Source: an uncultured Candidatus Binatia bacterium (GTDB lineage: Bacteria; Desulfobacterota; Binatia; UBA9968; JAJDTQ01). From it: DNA of 64,000 nucleotides. Under the pieces are notes generated by a model. That model did no database searches, had not been told where the DNA came from, and was given only the letters and a program-made list of their open reading frames with translations. This document shows, in pieces, positions 38,028 through 58,449 of the stretch (its first letter is position 1; the number at the start of each line of letters is the position of its first letter). The DNA is taken from NCBI GenBank assembly GCA_964291295.2, contig OZ219754.1, positions 1,760,001-1,824,000 on the forward strand, read 5' to 3'. Both the position numbers and the translations under genes were made by a program.

Positions 38028-38787
38028 ACGACTCATTCCCTGCCTCGACGTCGACGCCGGCCGGGTGGTGAAGGGGATCCGGTTCGTGGAGATCCGCGAC
38101 GCCGGGGATCCGGTGGAGGCGGCCCGGGCCTACGACGCGGCCGGCGCGGACGAACTCTGCTTCCTCGACATCACCGCCTCCCACGAGCAGCGCGGGATCA
38201 TCCTGGACGTGGTGGCGCGCACGGCCGACGCGGTTTTCATGCCCCTGACCGTGGGCGGCGGGATCCGGGAGAACGCGGACATCCGCAGGCTGCTGAAGGC
38301 CGGCGCCGACAAGGTCTCCATCAACACCGCGGCGGTGGCGCGTCCGGAGTTCGTGCGCGAAGCGGCGGAGATCTTCGGCAGCCAGTGCATCGTGGTGGCC
38401 ATCGATGCCAAGCGGGTGGAGGACCACTGGGAGGTGTTCACCCACGGTGGCCGCAAGCCCACCGGCATCGACGCGTGCGCGTGGGCCGAGCGCATGGCGG
38501 CCAGCGGCGCCGGCGAGATCCTGCTGACCAGCATGGACCGCGACGGTACCCGGGACGGCTACGATCTGCCGCTGACCCGGGCGATTGCCGACCGGGTCAC
38601 GGTTCCGGTCATCGCCTCGGGCGGCGTCGGCAATCCGGAACACCTCCACGACGGTTTCGTGGAGGGGCATGCCAGCGCCGCGCTGGCGGCGTCCATCTTC
38701 CACTACGGCGAGTACACCATCGGCGAGTGCAAGCGCTATCTGGAAGAGTGCGGGGTTCCGGTGCGGCCCACCCATGCCCAAGGCTGA
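38017..38787 (+). CDS. hisF: Imidazole glycerol phosphate synthase, cyclase subunit
   Basis: [15 protein letters not shown] and [10 protein letters not shown] motifs. Confidence 0.96.
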
Positions 38788-39283
38788 CTTGGTCGAAGCA
38801 TCTGCGCAGCGAACTCGCGACCCACGGCATCCCGGGGAGAAACGGGGCCAGAGAGGCCGCCAGAGCTCACGGTCGCATTGAGCATCGCGGTCCCGGCTTG
38901 GTTTCCCGGCCTTGTCAACCATCCCCATGTCGCGCAGCTCCTTCGCATCGCTCGCGAGCGCGGCACCGACGTGACCACCCTTGAACACGCCGGTGGCATC
39001 ACCTCGGTGCCGCCTCCCCGGAGCCGCTCCTCGCCGGGAACCGTGGCCATGGATCGGTGGCCGTACACCCTCACATCAGGGGCACGACCTTCCAGGAAGA
39101 CGCCTGCCTTGCGTGCCAGCGCTTCGCCTCCGAGAACAACGGCCGTGCAGCCGCATCGCCGTCGTGCTCGTCATCCACGGGACTCCGTTCGACAGCGTCG
39201 CCTCCGCAACCCGCCACCTTGCGCTCAAGCGCGAGGACGCTTTCGCCGTTATTCTCTCACCCTGAACATCACAACGCCGGACC

Positions 39284-39468
39284 ATGGGACGTCCGGCGCT
39301 TTGCCAGCACCCGCACGTCCGCGCTGACCGAAACCCTGTCACCGCAGGCTCCCGCCCGCCCATTCATCGGTCCGCGCCCGGCTGCCTTGTCGCTGGGTGC
39401 ATGCCATCAACCATCGAAGCCTCTGGACAAACACACCCGGGTTCTTCCGCTGTTCCCCAACGTGGGAT
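39284..39468 (+). repeat. Conserved upstream element of adhesin locus 1 (homologous to 56398-56570)
   Basis: Shared blocks GCACG(T/C)CCGCGCTGA(C/T)CGA, GTCACCGC, TCAACCATCGAAG, CTGGACA and CGTGGGA in the same order. Confidence 0.8.
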
Positions 39469-39668
39469 GATCCTGGCCGGCAAAGCCGCGGGTATTGCAA
39501 CCGCTCGCTGTTTCGGCTATCAGGTATGGGCTGTCCGCTTCGGCCGTGCGCCGGCACGGACATTCTCTCGACCATACCATTCGAGACGGAAGGGTGAGGC
39601 CATGACGAAAATACCGCGCGGTTGTTCGGACGGGAAACACGGTTGCCTCATGCACGCGGGGCCTTCGT

Positions 39669-39691
39669 CCCCCCCCCCCCCCCCCCCCCCC
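39669..39691 (+). repeat. Poly-C tract (C23) between the upstream ATG (39602) and the adhesin ORF; putative phase-variation switch
   Basis: 23 consecutive C. ATG 39602 is out of frame with ORF 39732, and C22 or C25 would fuse them without a stop. Confidence 0.9.
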
Positions 39692-39731
39692 TTCCAACAT
39701 CCACTCTCTCTCTGGGCGCGAGGCTGATCCG

Positions 39732-42700
39732 GTGCGCGCCTCCGCCAGAAGCCCACGACACCTGAGGGCGGGACTGCTCGCCGGCCTCTTCCTGCTCACG
39801 TTCGCCGCCGCCCTCGCGCCGCAGACGGCACAAGCACAGATCATTGATCTCACCGTAACGCCGGGCAACGGCAAGGTCGACCTGTCCTGGAGCTGGAGTG
39901 GCATTACCGGACAAATCAGGTGGCGGTACCACACATTCGGAGCTGCAACCAACAGCGCAACGGTTACGCCTTCCCCAGGGAAGCGAACTGGTACAGCGAC
40001 GATAACTGGTCTGACCAACGGCCAGATATATGATATCGAGATGCGCGCGAGTCGTCCTAGCGGGATTCATATTGGAACTTCCAACCGTGTCAGGGTGGTG
40101 CCGAACGACCTCGTCATCGTGTCCGCCACCGGGCTGGACAGCACAATACGGCTCAAATGGGACTATCAAGGTAGCCAAACCGGCAGTGGCTGGCAACATC
40201 AGACTTTTGAGGGAACAGGCGGCGGCCCATGGAAACAGCTGGCAGACTATTCTGCCGCCCGCGGGGCTGATATTCGAAATCTTGTTAACGGCAGAACCTA
40301 CAATATCGCTATTCGGTATCTGAGCGGCGGGGGCGGCTCCCACGCTGATTCCGTGCTCCACAACATTGGCTGGGTCAGCGCCACGCCGCGGGGGTCGACC
40401 CCGACGCTGGTTTCCGGCTCGAACGCCAGCGCCGCGGTCGAGTCGACCGGGGCGACGACGCTGGTGTGCTACAACCTTCTGGCGGCCTCGCAAGAAACCC
40501 CGCAAGGCTTGGTCAAGTATCTGGAGGCGCGCGCGGGCATGAGCGCCGTGCCTGCGCACAGCGTACTTGCCGATTCGAGTCTCGGCGTCGAGATCACCCA
40601 GGCCCCCGCCGGCATCACCAAGGGGCGCGGCGTCAACCTCAGTCCCTGCGTCAATCTCGGAGTGGGCGCGCATACCGTCACCTGGAGCTGGAAGGGCCGC
40701 GACGGCACTGCCGTGGCCGCCACGACCTCCACCACGATCACCGTGGCGGAGAGGGTCTCCAGTCCCAAGACGATCACGCTGTCGGCGTCCCCGTCGGCCA
40801 CGATCACCGAGGGCAACTCCGGTTCGACGGATGTCACCATCACCTTCACCCTCAGTGAGTCTGCGCCCGCGGGCTTCTCGGTTAGCTTGGGTTATCCCGC
40901 GGACATTGGCACAGCCACTGCCTCCGGCAAGGGATCTAACCCCTGCGATCCGCCTCTGCTTCCGAAGGGCACGGACGTGTGCCTCCCGGACGGCGTTATT
41001 GTCTCCATCGCCGAAGGCGAGACCCAGGGCACGAAGATCGTCCGCATACTCGGTGACACCCGGGAAGAACCGGACGAGACGATAAACCTCATCGGCTACC
41101 AGGACGACTGGGCCACCGGCAGGCTCACCCTGACCATCAGGGACGACGACGAGGGCGCCACCAAACCGGCCAGGCCGAGGGGCCTGTCGGCGGAAGCGGG
41201 CAATGCGCAGGTGGTGCTGACCTGGACCGATCCGGAGGACGATTCGATCACGGGGTATCAGGTGCAGAAGAAGAAGGGGAGCGCGGCCTGGGGCAGCTGG
41301 ACCGACCTCTCCGGTTCGGACGCGGACACCGTGATCCACACGGTGACGAGTCTGGACAACGACAGCGAATACCGCTTCCGCATCCGGGCGAAGAACGGTT
41401 CCGGCAACAGCGCCGCGTCGGCGGCGGTGAGCGCGACGCCGGCTGCCAATCCCAAGCCGTCCAAGCCGGTGCTGACGGCGGTGGCGGGTAACCGTTCGGT
41501 CACCCTGAGCTGGCCCGCCCAGACGAATATCGGGAATTGGGGTTACGAGTACAAGAGCGGGGCCGGCAGTTGGATCGCCAGGACGGTTTCGGACGGCAGC
41601 GCGACAAGCACGGTGGTGACGGGACTGACGGCCGGGACGGAATACACGTTCCGGCTGTTCGCCCGCCGCAGCAGCGGCGGGTCGTACCTTTCGTCGGTGT
41701 GGTCGGACCAGGTGACGGCGACGCCGTATGCCCTGTCGGCGCCGGTGCTGACAGGGGCCACATCGAATGTGGCCAGCTATAGTCTGGGGGTCCAACTGAC
41801 GTGGACCCATAGTGGTGACCTTCTCCCCAGTGGAGCCAGCTGGTTTCATTGGCAGATGGGTTATCGTCTCAAGGGGAGCACCACTTGGCAGGAAACCGCT
41901 CGCACGATCAGTTCGTCGGTACGTTCGGCGCGGACGGTTTCCTGGGAGGGAGGCGGCTACCCCGAGGGTGCGGTGGTGGAGGTGCGGGTCCGGGGACGGG
42001 GGTTGAATGATCAGACTGGCGTCTGGTCCAATATCCGCACGGTGACCCTCAGTGACGATGATGATGACAGGCCAGCCCTGACGTTCACCAGAGCGCCGGT
42101 GACGGTGGAGCCCGGGGCCGCCGCGACCTACACGGTGGCGTTGACGCAGGCGCATGCGGGCACACTGTCGATCGCGAGCGACGACACGGCCACGGCGACG
42201 GTGGACCCGGCGAGCCTGACCTTTACGGCGGTCAACTACAACACGGGTCAGACGGTGACGGTGACCGGGGTCGGCAACGGCACGGCGACGATCAACCACG
42301 CCTTCCGGCTGACGGGAGCTTCCGCGGATGCGATACCGGACGCGGGGACGGTGGACGTGACGGTGGCCGATACGCCGGGGGTGACGGTCTCGACGGCGGT
42401 GCTGACGGTGGTGGAGGGTGACTCCGGCACCTACACGTTGCGGCTGAACAAGGCGCCGTCGAGCGATGTGACGATAAGGGTGGACGGCGCTTCGGGGGAC
42501 GTGACGGTGGCGGGCGCGCCGCTGACCTTCACCACGTCCAACTGGAACAAGCCGCAGACGGTGACGGTGAACGCGGGGACGGACACGGACAATATCAGGG
42601 ATCCCGATGTGACGCTGACCCACAGCGCGGCGGGCGGCGGCTACGGTTCGGTGGGCATCGCCTCGGTGGTGGTGAGCGTGACGGAGAAGGATGTGGCGCC

Positions 42701-45065
42701 GGCGAAGCCGACGGGCCTGGCTGCGGCGGCGGGCGACGGTTCGGTGACGCTGAGCTGGACGGACGCGGGCAATCCGACCATCACGAAGTGGCAATACCGG
42801 CGGAAGGCCGGCGGCGGGGCTTGGGGCGATTGGAAGGACATTGGGGGCTCCGGAGCGATCACCACCAGCCACAAGTTGACCGGGCTGACCAACGGCACCG
42901 CGTATCAGTTCGAGGTGCGCGCGGTGAACGGTGCCGGCAACGGCGCCGGCCCGGATGCGCCGGTGAGCGCGACGCCGGCGGACGCCACGCTCCCGCCCGC
43001 GCCGCCCGCGGCGGGCGTGAGCGTGAGGGTGACGCCGACGGCGCTGACGGTGGAGGAGGGTGGCTCCGGGAGCTACACGGTGGTGCTGGGTGCGGAGCCC
43101 ACGGACACGGTGACGGTGACGGTGGGCGGGGCATCGGGGGAGGTGACGGCGTCGCCGCAGCGCCTGACCTTCACGGTTTCGAACTGGAGCGAGGCGCAGG
43201 GGGTGACGGTGAGCGCGGCTCGTGACGCGGACATGGCGGACGACAGGGCGACGCTGACGCACGGAGCGAGGGGCGGGGGCTATGAATCGGTGAGCATCGC
43301 CTCGGTGGCGGTGCGGGTGAGGGACACGACGCCGGTGCTGAGTCTGGAGACGGACCCGGCGGCGGTGGCCGAGGGGGAGAACATCCGCCTCACGGTGACC
43401 TCGGACCGTGCGCTGACGGGCAGTCTGACGGTGAGTCTGACGCTGGCGGCGCGCGACGGCGGCGGCTTCGATGGGGAGGACCTTCCGGGTGGGCTGGGGC
43501 CGCGTTCGTTGGATGTGGTGTTCGGCGCCACGGCGAGCCGGAGGGGTTTGGTGATGATACCCACCAGGGTGGATGGGGAGGCGGAAGGGAGGGAGTCGTA
43601 CCGCATCACGCTGAACGCGGCGCCGGGCTATGCGGTGGGGGTGGATGCGGTGGCGGAAGGAGTGCTGGAAGAGGGTTCGTCGTCGTCGGCGAACCGGGTG
43701 AACCGTGCGATCCTGCCGCATGTGGCGGCGCTGGCGCTGTCGCAGACGCTTGAGGCGGTGACGGGGCGGATCGAAGCGGTGTCGGATGGCGGTGCGGGTG
43801 GTACGGTGCGTTTTGGAGCGGCGCCGGGGATGGTGGTGGATGATGAGTGGGTTGGTCCGGGAGGTCGGGGGCAAGGGGGGCCGGGCTTGCGAGAGTTGCT
43901 GGACGGGGCCTCCTTCGCGCTGCCGCTGGGAGCTTCGGGGGCGGGAGGGGCGGCGGCGCCGGCGTTGTGGGGAGTGGGGGAGTGGCGGTCGCTGTCGGGT
44001 TCGGAGCGGGATCTTTCCTGGGACGGCGGGCTGTGGTCGGGGTATCTGGGGGCGGACGTGCGGGTTCGCCCGGACCTGTTGGCGGGGGCGGCGGTGTCGT
44101 ATGCGAAGGGCAAGGTGGATGCGGTGTCCCGGGGTGGTGATGGGACGAAAAGCAGGCACGAGAGCCGGGTGGTGTCGGTGAATCCGTATCTGGCGTGGCT
44201 GCGTGCGGACGGCACGACGCTGTGGGCGAGTGCGGGCTATGGGAGGGGCGAGGTGCGGATCACCGAGGCGGGAGCGGCGGCGCGCACGGCGGACCTGTCC
44301 CAGTGGAGTGGGGCGGCGGGCGGGCGCGGGGTGCTGTTGGAGGATCCGGAGCTCATCGCCGGGGGCACCACGCGAGTGGCGGTGAAGGGGGAGGGCTCCC
44401 TGGTCCAACTGGACACGGAGGCCGGCGACGGTCTGACCGAGTTGACGGTGAAGGCGAGCCGACTGCGGCTGATGCTGGAGGGGTCCTGGGAGCACCGGGT
44501 CGGGGGCGATGCGACGCTGACGCCGGCACTGGAAGTGGGCGTGCGTCATGACGACGGCGACGTTGGGCAGGGCGGCGGCGTGGAGGTGGGGGCCGGCGTG
44601 ACCTGGCGCGACCCGGGTGCCCGTCTGACCGCGGAGTTGCGGGCCCGGATGCTGGCGGTGCACGAGCGGGACCGGGAGGAATGGGGCGTGAGCGCCTTGG
44701 TGCGCCTTGACCCCGGGGCCGACGGGCGGGGGAGCTACCTGAGCTTCGGCCCGACCCACGGTCGCACGGCAAGCGGTCTGGGGCGGTTGTTCGACTACGG
44801 CTCGGCCATGGACAGCGGGGCGGGGGCGGGAGAGAGCCGCCTGGAGGCGGAGATGGGGCACGGCATCGGCATCGCCGGCCCGGCGCCGCTGGCGCTGCTG
44901 ACGCCTTATGCCGGGCTCAGCCTGGCGGAGTCGGGCGAGCGCACGCTGCGCCTGGGCGCACGCTACAGCCTGGGCCCGGGGGTCGCCCTGGGAATCGAGG
45001 GCACAAGCCGGCCCTGGACCAACGGCGAGCAGGGCCTCATGCTGCGCGGTGCGCTGCGCTGGTGA
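39732..45065 (+). CDS. Large FN3/Calx-beta-like repeat surface protein with C-terminal autotransporter-type beta-barrel (adhesin 1); true start probably 39602 across the poly-C tract
   Basis: Signal peptide ending AQA-Q; multiple FN3 repeats (LxW...GLTNGxxYxFxxRA); TITEG..PDET modules; amphipathic barrel strands; terminal ..LRW. Confidence 0.85.
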   Translation: MRASARSPRHLRAGLLAGLFLLTFAAALAPQTAQAQIIDLTVTPGNGKVDLSWSWSGITGQIRWRYHTFGAATNSATVTPSPGKRTGTATITGLTNGQIYDIEMRASRPSGIHIGTSNRVRVVPNDLVIVSATGLDSTIRLKWDYQGSQTGSGWQHQTFEGTGGGPWKQLADYSAARGADIRNLVNGRTYNIAIRYLSGGGGSHADSVLHNIGWVSATPRGSTPTLVSGSNASAAVESTGATTLVCYNLLAASQETPQGLVKYLEARAGMSAVPAHSVLADSSLGVEITQAPAGITKGRGVNLSPCVNLGVGAHTVTWSWKGRDGTAVAATTSTTITVAERVSSPKTITLSASPSATITEGNSGSTDVTITFTLSESAPAGFSVSLGYPADIGTATASGKGSNPCDPPLLPKGTDVCLPDGVIVSIAEGETQGTKIVRILGDTREEPDETINLIGYQDDWATGRLTLTIRDDDEGATKPARPRGLSAEAGNAQVVLTWTDPEDDSITGYQVQKKKGSAAWGSWTDLSGSDADTVIHTVTSLDNDSEYRFRIRAKNGSGNSAASAAVSATPAANPKPSKPVLTAVAGNRSVTLSWPAQTNIGNWGYEYKSGAGSWIARTVSDGSATSTVVTGLTAGTEYTFRLFARRSSGGSYLSSVWSDQVTATPYALSAPVLTGATSNVASYSLGVQLTWTHSGDLLPSGASWFHWQMGYRLKGSTTWQETARTISSSVRSARTVSWEGGGYPEGAVVEVRVRGRGLNDQTGVWSNIRTVTLSDDDDDRPALTFTRAPVTVEPGAAATYTVALTQAHAGTLSIASDDTATATVDPASLTFTAVNYNTGQTVTVTGVGNGTATINHAFRLTGASADAIPDAGTVDVTVADTPGVTVSTAVLTVVEGDSGTYTLRLNKAPSSDVTIRVDGASGDVTVAGAPLTFTTSNWNKPQTVTVNAGTDTDNIRDPDVTLTHSAAGGGYGSVGIASVVVSVTEKDVAPAKPTGLAAAAGDGSVTLSWTDAGNPTITKWQYRRKAGGGAWGDWKDIGGSGAITTSHKLTGLTNGTAYQFEVRAVNGAGNGAGPDAPVSATPADATLPPAPPAAGVSVRVTPTALTVEEGGSGSYTVVLGAEPTDTVTVTVGGASGEVTASPQRLTFTVSNWSEAQGVTVSAARDADMADDRATLTHGARGGGYESVSIASVAVRVRDTTPVLSLETDPAAVAEGENIRLTVTSDRALTGSLTVSLTLAARDGGGFDGEDLPGGLGPRSLDVVFGATASRRGLVMIPTRVDGEAEGRESYRITLNAAPGYAVGVDAVAEGVLEEGSSSSANRVNRAILPHVAALALSQTLEAVTGRIEAVSDGGAGGTVRFGAAPGMVVDDEWVGPGGRGQGGPGLRELLDGASFALPLGASGAGGAAAPALWGVGEWRSLSGSERDLSWDGGLWSGYLGADVRVRPDLLAGAAVSYAKGKVDAVSRGGDGTKSRHESRVVSVNPYLAWLRADGTTLWASAGYGRGEVRITEAGAAARTADLSQWSGAAGGRGVLLEDPELIAGGTTRVAVKGEGSLVQLDTEAGDGLTELTVKASRLRLMLEGSWEHRVGGDATLTPALEVGVRHDDGDVGQGGGVEVGAGVTWRDPGARLTAELRARMLAVHERDREEWGVSALVRLDPGADGRGSYLSFGPTHGRTASGLGRLFDYGSAMDSGAGAGESRLEAEMGHGIGIAGPAPLALLTPYAGLSLAESGERTLRLGARYSLGPGVALGIEGTSRPWTNGEQGLMLRGALRW

Positions 45066-58210: not shown

Positions 58211-58432
58211 GTGTCGGGCGCGGCGCACGTTGAAATCGGCCTGCGGATGGGTTACAGGTTGCACCGATGGGTTTGCTGCGGTCGTGCGGGTTCGGCGCCC
58301 CGATATTCGACAGGAATTCAGGACGGGAGGATGAGATCATGACGGGGACGCCGGGCGATGTCGGGATGCATGACCTGCGGCTGTCCGGGCGGGGCATGAG
58401 CGCCTCACGCGCGCGCGAACCCGAACTCGTTG

Positions 58433-58449
58433 CCCCCCCCCCCCCCCCC
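58433..58449 (+). repeat. Poly-C tract (C17) between the upstream ATG (58339) and the adhesin ORF; putative phase-variation switch
   Basis: 17 consecutive C. ATG 58339 is out of frame with ORF 58461, and C18 or C15 would fuse them without a stop. Confidence 0.9.

Follow-up and report, generated by a model that had tools for sequence, protein, structure and literature searches.

Contingency loci are considered characteristic of pathogens adapted to a host, among them Neisseria, Haemophilus, Campylobacter, and Bartonella. Poly-C or poly-G tracts of about 10 to 15 nt that lie between promoter elements, as in the C-stretch of Bordetella fim and in Neisseria opc and porA, control surface protein genes by slippage, and the tetranucleotide repeats of Haemophilus influenzae lic1 and lic2, combined with alternative in-frame starts, give three expression levels. 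Here, we analyzed a run of 23 cytosines (C23) at the 5′ end of a predicted autotransporter gene in a 64,000-nt stretch of DNA (the window) from an uncultured Candidatus Binatia bacterium (assembly GCA_964291295.2, contig OZ219754.1, positions 1,760,001 to 1,824,000 of the forward strand). C/G runs of roughly 8 or more count as hypermutable repeats, and C23 belongs to this class. A slippage switch of this kind is already known, from pathogens; here it would operate in an uncultured bacterium.

The closest described systems also belong to autotransporter genes. The published passages compared here place a poly-C tract inside the coding sequence of NalP and AusI and AAGC repeats just after the start codon of AutA and AutB (PMC5472700). 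For Bartonella badE, they give A9/G9 repeats at the 5′ end, the length changes of which are selected in hosts (PMC11466379), and for Moraxella catarrhalis uspA1, a G(n) tract 29 bp upstream of the open reading frame (ORF) that grades expression through mRNA level (PMC7302503).

Going by these passages, the C23 locus resembles NalP and AusI in being a classical autotransporter gene with a poly-C tract, for which a slipped-strand frame shift and stochastic ON/OFF expression of a surface or secreted protein are proposed. It differs in that the tract lies upstream of the signal peptide, in a leader with its own start that is followed by a conserved second Shine-Dalgarno (SD) sequence and start codon. 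The tracts here (C12 to C29) are much longer, although the passages compared do not contain the Neisseria lengths, and they occur in an uncultured, high-GC, nonpathogen lineage with a passenger rich in fibronectin type III (Fn3) domains rather than a protease. In AutA/AutB and badE, as at this locus, the repeat occupies the opening codons of a gene for an autotransporter adhesin, separating the start codon from the functional protein. Those genes differ from the locus in repeat unit, repeat length, and lineage; badE is trimeric (type Vc), and none of these genes is described in the passages compared as having an internal SD-stop-start module. The likeness to uspA1 is a homopolymer tens of nucleotides before the annotated start of an autotransporter-superfamily adhesin (40 nt here, if GTG 39732 is the sole start). 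As described there, however, the uspA1 tract lies outside a translated leader and acts on mRNA, whereas at the C23 locus the reading frame of a conserved upstream start runs through the tract, and fused forms are known in the family. In the full-text literature, we found no report that pairs Binatota with phase variation or Binatia with an autotransporter, and none that joins homopolymeric phase variation with a symbiont and metagenome-assembled genomes (MAGs).

The C23 tract and its three reading frames

The tract sits between a conserved SD plus ATG and the signal peptide, and the three frames lead to three different fates. An earlier reading from sequence only (the sequence-only reading) had described a leader that starts at ATG 39602 behind a ribosome binding site, reads through C23, and stops at 39727; both the frame and a GAGG at 39596 to 39599, ending 2 nt before the ATG (39602 to 39604), were confirmed. 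Counterparts of this first SD (SD1) in paralogues and relatives read 'GGTGAGG(C/T)C' or 'GGGAGAGCGAGACC', each directly followed by ATGAC. The ATG is an internal Met codon of a 147-aa stop-to-stop ORF (39284 to 39727), and this upstream extension of the leader frame had no family match. As also described, the main frame is closed by a TGA at 39603 to 39605 and is open from 39606 through the tract into the signal peptide. Its first ATG, GTG, or TTG is GTG 39732, which begins the 1,777-aa ORF (39732 to 45065). The caveat that this GTG has a GAGG ribosome binding site of its own was well founded: a second SD (SD2) at 39720 to 39723 lies 8 nt before it, and the leader stop, TGA 39725 to 39727, lies 4 nt before it.

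By coordinate arithmetic, the loss of one C or the gain of two (C22 or C25) puts ATG 39602 in frame with GTG 39732, giving the single continuous poly-Pro protein that had been predicted. Such fused forms occur naturally at C1:896843 and C1:3071512 in the source genome (G000, in which the window tract lies at C1:1799669-1799691) and in the database relatives P0008, P0028, and P0007. Continuous proteins at other tract lengths were also found at 14 loci called by script as state A (fused). In state B, as at C23, the leader stops at −7 relative to the second start, and in state C a third-frame stop at +31 to +33 ends the leaders of other family loci, likewise.

Our preferred reading, held with somewhat more confidence than doubt, is that the C23 run would be a slipped-strand contingency tract lying in the 5′ part of the coding region of a type Va autotransporter gene and acting there as a translational switch, as the sequence-only reading had proposed. 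Transcription would probably begin about 130 nt upstream of the tract, and translation would start at ATG 39602 behind SD1 and pass through the tract as poly-proline. Tract lengths of 3n+1 (C22, C25, C19, and so on), and no others, would let the ribosome cross the 40-nt linker and go on to translate the signal peptide and the 1,777-aa protein, producing a pre-protein whose signal peptide is preceded by about 44 extra N-terminal residues. At C23, the leader would end at TGA 39725, 4 nt before GTG 39732, and with C24 at TGA 39763. Replication slippage would alter tract length at high frequency and so turn the surface protein on or off at random in each cell lineage, and each of the eight paralogues with a tract would do likewise, independently of the others. 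Some initiation at the conserved SD and GTG may persist. The tract, its frames, the shared layout, the natural fused forms, tract length as the character that changes fastest, and relatives without the internal GTG are observed; we infer a useful slippage rate, export and function of the fused form, and little or no protein at C23. Table 1 lists the features of the locus.

Table 1. Sequence features around the C23 tract, in window coordinates
Feature	Position	Strand	Basis or remark
C23 homopolymer, proposed slipped-strand tract	39669-39691	+	Direct read and genome run listing
SD1, Shine-Dalgarno-like AAGGGTGAGG before leader start	39590-39599	+	Sequence read
Leader ORF with C23: MTKIPRGCSDGKHGCLMHAGPSS-P7-FQHPLSLWARG, stop TGA 39725-39727	39602-39727	+	Translation; state B
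40-nt linker from tract to GTG, open in main frame (SNIHSLSGREADP)	39692-39731	+	Holds SD2 and leader stop
GTG start and 35-residue signal-peptide-like N terminus (VRASARSPRHLRAGLLAGLFLLTFAAALAPQTAQA)	39732-39836	+	Gene-finder start; by-eye reading
Third-frame TGA, +31 to +33 from GTG; leader end with C24, C21, or C18	39763-39765	+	Sequence read
Weak promoter-like pair: TTGCAA 39495-39500, 17 nt, TATCAG 39518-39523	39495-39523	+	By eye

The 1,777-aa ORF matched Fn3 (PF00041) in three stretches (E value 5.6e-32). Its last 421 residues matched the Autotransporter family (PF03797) with an E value of 2.2e-10 and 41.2 bits against a cut-off of 26; a whole-protein scan at an E value of ≤0.01 did not pick up PF03797, and a PDB sequence search with the same 421 residues gave no match. 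Read by eye from the GTG, the N terminus has a basic n-region, a hydrophobic core, and an AQA|Q cleavage site. Because Fn3 stretches, a PF03797 barrel, and a signal-peptide-like N terminus occur together, the ORF is predicted to be a type Va autotransporter, with an Fn3-rich passenger of about 1,400 residues between signal peptide and barrel. Type Va passengers are usually a β-helix, and an Fn3-rich passenger is atypical. The Fn3 repeats and the barrel make the protein a putative adhesin.

The promoter-like pair ends 78 nt before the leader ATG, and the tract lies about 145 nt downstream of the boxes. In our own regular-expression search, a match of at least 5/6 to TATAAT was present 48 to 89 nt before the leader start at 17 of 26 family loci, several with TTGCAA upstream. 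The boxes are a candidate promoter and serve as a lead only; a scan for sigma-70-type sites gave none in 38700 to 39800, none in two relatives, and none around the tract. Phase variation through a promoter spacer, of the fim/opc/porA type, was rejected, the tract being downstream both of the only promoter-like boxes and of the conserved SD1 and ATG. We also discarded an ESPR extension (PF13018), as the leader-containing protein P0002 matched no Pfam family at an E value of ≤0.01 and the leaders are not constrained as amino acid sequences. The predicted fold of 39585 to 39770 was no more stable than that of shuffled sequences (z score, +1.67). The neighboring genes are hisD-B-H-A-F upstream, ending at 38787, and trxB downstream, on the opposite strand. 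The interval from hisF to the leader is unusually long, with about 810 nt free of genes (38788 to 39601).

Long tracts and paralogous loci in the source genome

The genome measures 3.70 Mb in three contigs, at 66% G+C. It holds 8 C/G runs of length 9, 2 of length 10, none of length 11, and 35 of lengths 12 to 27, compared with about 8.4 runs of 12 or more expected under a composition-only model. Since the real counts fall far faster than this model below length 12 and yet 35 runs reach 12 or more, the run-length distribution is bimodal. All four tract pairs with 99 to 100% identical flanks (100 nt on each side) differ in length (16/17, 16/20, 15/17, and 15/14); a fifth pair, with flanks 92 to 95% identical, is 19/19. 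Together with a span of C9 to C29 across the family, these length differences argue for the slippage-prone tract that the sequence-only reading had claimed. The C23 tract is real and nonrandom, and it is part of a genome-wide set of contingency tracts.

Judged by flanks and adjoining ORFs, the other members of this set fall into several groups. In five paralogous TbpB-like lipoprotein genes, the tract lies just after the lipobox, with four in frame and one truncated at 67 aa; these would be plain in-ORF switches in the same genome. In other TbpB-like lipoprotein genes and in those for RTX-repeat proteins, the tract lies upstream, and the RTX-repeat tracts adjoin 'tcaagtcaagg' boxes that resemble promoter elements. 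A tract is found inside the ORF of a 1,492-aa Mrr-ResIII-helicase-N6_Mtase protein and of a DUF1156 protein, and one also occurs at C1:2287382, where the gene encodes a DPACGSGHFL methyltransferase motif. Genes for RTX-repeat proteins, TbpB-like lipoproteins, and restriction-modification enzymes are classic among contingency loci. A C14 pattern was present in 23 of 27 other genomes of the genus versus 12 of 88 in a sister family, some of these matches, at contig ends, being possible sequencing artifacts.

The motif G[CG][CT]T[GA][AG]NCC[AG]GTG, followed by the family signal peptide, occurs at eight G000 loci, all of which have a C14 to C23 tract 25 to 66 nt upstream. Upstream of the tract, each leader has an SD and an ATG (GTG at one locus) and reads 'MT(K/R/G)..'. 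A ninth locus precedes a 10,711-aa ORF (C1:2349243) and consists of a leader ATG at 2349086, C21, and a TGA at 2349236 to 2349238 that is separated by 4 nt from an ATG. All nine thus follow one plan: SD and start, variable leader, C14 to C23, a linker of 25 to 78 nt, a stop 4 nt before a GTG or ATG, and the ORF. As assembled, the leader ATG reads into the signal peptide at C1:896843 (C17) and C1:3071512 (C15). The stop lies at −7 at four loci (the window C23 locus, 2911885, 5012, and 2349145) and at +31 at two (1818433, which is window 58433-58449, and 3343886), and C1:586116 has a frameshifted leader. C1:3343886 is a near-identical twin of the fused C1:3071512 and, with C14 in place of C15, is out of frame. 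Close paralogues of the C-terminal barrel that were traced to their 5′ end all carry the tract. Distant ones (C1:2780220, 251453, 186276, and 234778; at most 53% identity, with one at 68%) have no tract and other N termini.

Several observations accompany these loci. The window holds a second switch of the same build, with a leader ATG at 58339, C17 at 58433 to 58449, a 26-nt linker, and a TAG 4 nt before GTG 58476; its ORF of about 1,840 aa runs to 63989, and at C17 the locus is in state C, its leader stopping at +31. Two giant ORFs have tract-bearing leaders, namely C1:2349243-2381378 (10,711 aa) and one of about 11,700 aa from C1:4967 that wraps the origin to about 3617677, and both have Fn3-like repeats and barrel-like C termini. 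An extra copy of the motif 'ccgggcgcggggctgatccgGTG' lies at C1:2912003-2912027 (minus strand), about 175 nt upstream of the real one at C1:2911885, with no signal peptide after it. Many leaders contain a G+C-rich inverted repeat (GGGGCGCGAG CGC CTCGCGCGCGAACCCC) that ends 3 to 5 nt before the tract, for example, at L103 (2086 to 2115, minus strand) and at C1:896843, 1818433, 3071512, and 3343886; it is absent at the window C23 locus and is conserved as DNA despite being read in different frames. Contigs of related populations join 39694, just past the C23 tract, to 58473 and 40742, at the first Fn3 domain, to 58891, each time at the equivalent point of the second autotransporter gene, which suggests mosaic or recombined autotransporter paralogues in other samples.

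The same data bear on the alternative that there is no working switch at all, the tract being neutral slippery DNA inherited with the cassette, the locus decaying, or C23 being an assembly error in a fused gene. Long homopolymers are error prone on all platforms, and the family does include degenerate members, L214 and C1:586116 having broken leaders and L298 and L301 being followed by short ORFs. However, long pure tracts decay fast unless maintained, and at least 32 family loci in 13 MAG records keep C9 to C29 in the equivalent position. The 1,777-aa ORF is intact, with a G+C content at third codon positions (GC3) of 0.83, and given also the bimodal run-length distribution, we consider this alternative highly improbable.

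Which start codon is used

An SD with an ATG or GTG opening an 'MT(K/R)..' peptide was present upstream of the tract at 25 of 28 family loci and at 19 of 22 further loci, and this recurrence supports the upstream ATG as a real start. At the leader start codon, ATG and GTG were the only variants, as would be expected of an initiation codon, while the DNA that follows it diverged across distant genomes. This conservation has to be weighed against a rather unlikely alternative in which translation starts at GTG 39732, the upstream ATG is incidental, and the tract is a 5′-untranslated-region element, 40 nt upstream, that tunes mRNA level or stability independently of frame. The signal peptide does begin at the GTG with SD2 8 nt before it, the gene callers use this start (P0004, P0005, and P0006), and the tract, being well downstream of the promoter-like boxes, would be transcribed. 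A graded effect of an upstream G(n) tract on transcript level is documented for uspA1 in the passages compared (PMC7302503). A frame-independent role is nevertheless hard to square with an SD1 and ATG/GTG that are conserved across distant genomes when the following sequence is not, or with a main frame that is open from tract to start at all eight G000 loci. Natural fused proteins exist, some loci lack the second start, and at L322 the tract begins one base after an ATG with a strong SD.

Among 30 loci of genomes G124 to G128, 26 keep the stop and second start, and 4 have GCG, GCG, GTC, and GCA in place of the start. Because these four relatives replaced the GTG yet kept the leader, the internal start appears dispensable and the leader start the one that matters. 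At three of them (L296, with C19; L322, with ATG-A-C13; and L300), an ORF open to the locus end (534 to 539 codons) continues the frame of the leader, L300 having lost both the tract and the −7 stop; at L313, the leader is out of frame. L216 and L264 (C6), in which the tract has decayed or shrunk, are in the fused frame as well. As loci without the second start and loci with decayed tracts read fused, the leader start would be a true protein start and the fused pre-protein a viable product, in line with the sequence-only reading. The TGA is kept at three of the four loci without the second start and is thus conserved even where re-initiation is impossible.

Across 50 rows, the frame tally gave 14 fused, 14 with the stop at −7, 14 in the third frame, 2 with a broken leader, and 6 in which either the leader or a long tract was not found. 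The tally had been meant to separate a fused-only model from translational coupling, and it came out even; equal numbers are what free switching would be expected to give.

Several points weigh against our preferred reading. No other part of the region is as well conserved as the module 'GCG(A/G)GGCTGANCC(G/A)GTG', which was present in all 22 unique sequences. Its stop never deviates at the T and the A, and the start is GTG in 20 and ATG in 2 of the 22, while the neighboring third-codon position varies freely. A mere linker peptide would not seem to need such conservation of SD2-TGA-N4-GTG, and the conserved internal start has no explanation in a fused-only model, which keeps re-initiation at GTG 39732 alive as a rival. 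The product from this GTG has, by eye, a textbook-looking signal peptide, and gene finders chose the start here and in two close relatives. For six class-2 leaders, pairwise differences by codon position were 0.257, 0.343, and 0.318, with no third-position excess. Paralogues read shared leader and linker DNA in different frames, and two leaders are frameshifted before the tract. It is unusual for a Sec signal peptide to be preceded by an extension of about 44 residues with 7 to 8 prolines, and export of the extended form is putative. The assembled length of a 23-nt homopolymer may also be off by a base or two, and the phase state of the locus is therefore less certain than the existence of the tract. 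Of the sequence-only reading's statement that the gene is 'currently out of frame', the frame of C23 as assembled stands; that the locus is OFF is not certain, because conservation in the region is highest at the SD-stop-start module.

The rival that these points sustain is a three-state dial based on coupling, to which we give a minor share of our confidence. The leader would deliver ribosomes to the module: at C23, C20, or C26, the stop would allow re-initiation at GTG 39732, with the locus ON; C22 or C25 would give the fused protein; and at C24 or C21, ribosomes would pass the start to TGA 39763, leaving the locus off or low. This would resemble lic1 and lic2 in that a repeat selects among initiation codons and gives more than two expression states, although the alternative starts of lic1 are located upstream of its repeat and the second start at this locus is downstream of the tract. 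The stop falls exactly at −7 to −5 in 22 of 22 unique sequences, and two G000 loci kept it as TAG at the same distance after an indel changed nearby codons. Its T is a synonymous third position of GCT or GTT that never varies, in a genome with a GC3 of about 0.83 to 0.9, whereas the next third position does vary. The second start is only ever GTG or ATG in the 22 sequences, a TGA-N4-ATG follows the leader of the giant ORF C1:2349243 too, SD2 spacing is normal, and the leader peptide is unconstrained. ViennaRNA paired SD2 with the C tract with a mean probability of 0.43 over 25 loci, which could tie initiation to leader translation.

At the window C23 locus itself, however, the predicted pairing of SD2 with the tract was 0.0, and RNAalifold on the 22 sequences found no conserved structure masking SD2 (−9.7 kcal/mol, covariation term −0.24, one compensatory pair). 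Coupling also fits poorly with the 4 of 30 loci that keep leader and ORF without the second start, with the tract-less or decayed loci L300, L216, and L264, which are fixed in the fused frame and not in the frame with the stop at −7, and with the lack of enrichment of state B (14 of 42 classified loci). An apparent covariation of GAGGC/GCCUC with GGGGC/GCCCU, seen by eye, was dropped because it rested on too few independent events.

A proposed switch module shared across lineages

Members of the family share one layout: an SD and ATG leader, a poly-C tract of C9 to C29, a linker of 24 to 66 nt (up to 78 nt among the nine G000 loci), the conserved SD-TGA-N4-GTG, and a signal peptide. P0004 is the window protein as found in the database, called from GTG 39732, and database relatives on other chromosome-size contigs are 73 to 79% identical to it in the stretch of the first 220 residues. 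For P0005 and P0006, the called start is the GTG equivalent. In P0008, P0028, and P0007, a leader, a proline run, and a linker ending in (A/V)EPV are in frame with the signal peptide. The DNA of the relatives has C14, C27, and C12 at the matching place. The closest relative (L205/P0006, 78% identity) has C27. Of 20 N-terminal loci in genomes G121 to G123, 17 have C12 to C29, 1 has a decayed tract (L216), and 2 are without a leader (L208 and L225).

The genomes G121 to G123 are no kin of G000, their MurA being only 53 to 54% identical to that of the window, whereas the window's MurA and molybdopterin oxidoreductase are 80 to 87% identical to those of MAGs titled Candidatus Binatia or Thermodesulfobacteriota. 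A scan with the 23-nt SD-stop-start motif, using one genome per species, gave 40 matches, of which 7 were chance-like and 33 were family loci in 13 MAG records; C9 to C29 lay within 120 nt upstream in 32 of the 40. By the submitters' own taxonomic titles, four of these records are Alphaproteobacteria; four are Gammaproteobacteria, Pseudomonadales, or Pseudohongiella; one each is Vicinamibacteria, Thermoanaerobaculia, and Ca. Multivorans; and two are Ca. Poriferihabitaceae. Because the module and the N terminus (73 to 79%) are shared despite a MurA identity of 53 to 54% and across several titled classes or phyla, the comparison implies that the cassette of leader, tract, SD-stop-start, and signal peptide was probably spread by horizontal transfer.

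Nearer relatives gave little. A DNA search for the locus in 30 relatives found only the his-operon flank (G008) and an unrelated tract (G009), and a protein search of 27 genus genomes with the N terminus of the autotransporter that starts at GTG 58476 gave only generic Fn3 matches. JGI metagenome contigs gave no match with the tract flanks and none with the family motif. A single study has three runs with parts of the window, assembled as Logan contigs. In X1, a 1,174-nt contig breaks off at 39690, within the tract. In X2, a contig of 1,182 nt covers 39200 to 39703 with no other letters and 5 gap letters (about C18); bridging requires at least 31 letters past the tract and this contig has 12, and it was not counted as evidence.

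A wider reading would combine these elements: a mobile cassette of promoter, leader start, poly-C, SD-stop-start, and signal peptide that acts as the three-state dial, with C23 being ON by termination and re-initiation, and that travels with Fn3 autotransporter genes across at least five lineages, at class or phylum level, of uncultured bacteria that are probably host associated. Taken jointly, mobility and dial form a reading that we put forward only tentatively. The interest of the locus lies in its lineage, in the number and length of the tracts, and in the sharing of the whole switch module across lineages. The module is common, nearly base for base, to MAGs titled Alphaproteobacteria, Gammaproteobacteria, Acidobacteriota classes, and Ca. 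Poriferihabitaceae, at a MurA identity of 53 to 54% in three of them. Because gene callers begin such genes at the internal GTG and a consensus assembly fixes a single tract length, standard MAG annotation shows neither the switch nor the population heterogeneity that it would create. The tracts and the sharing of the module point to strong selection that fluctuates and acts on the surface of these bacteria, through host recognition, phage, or grazers, and to the horizontal spread of ready-made switches.

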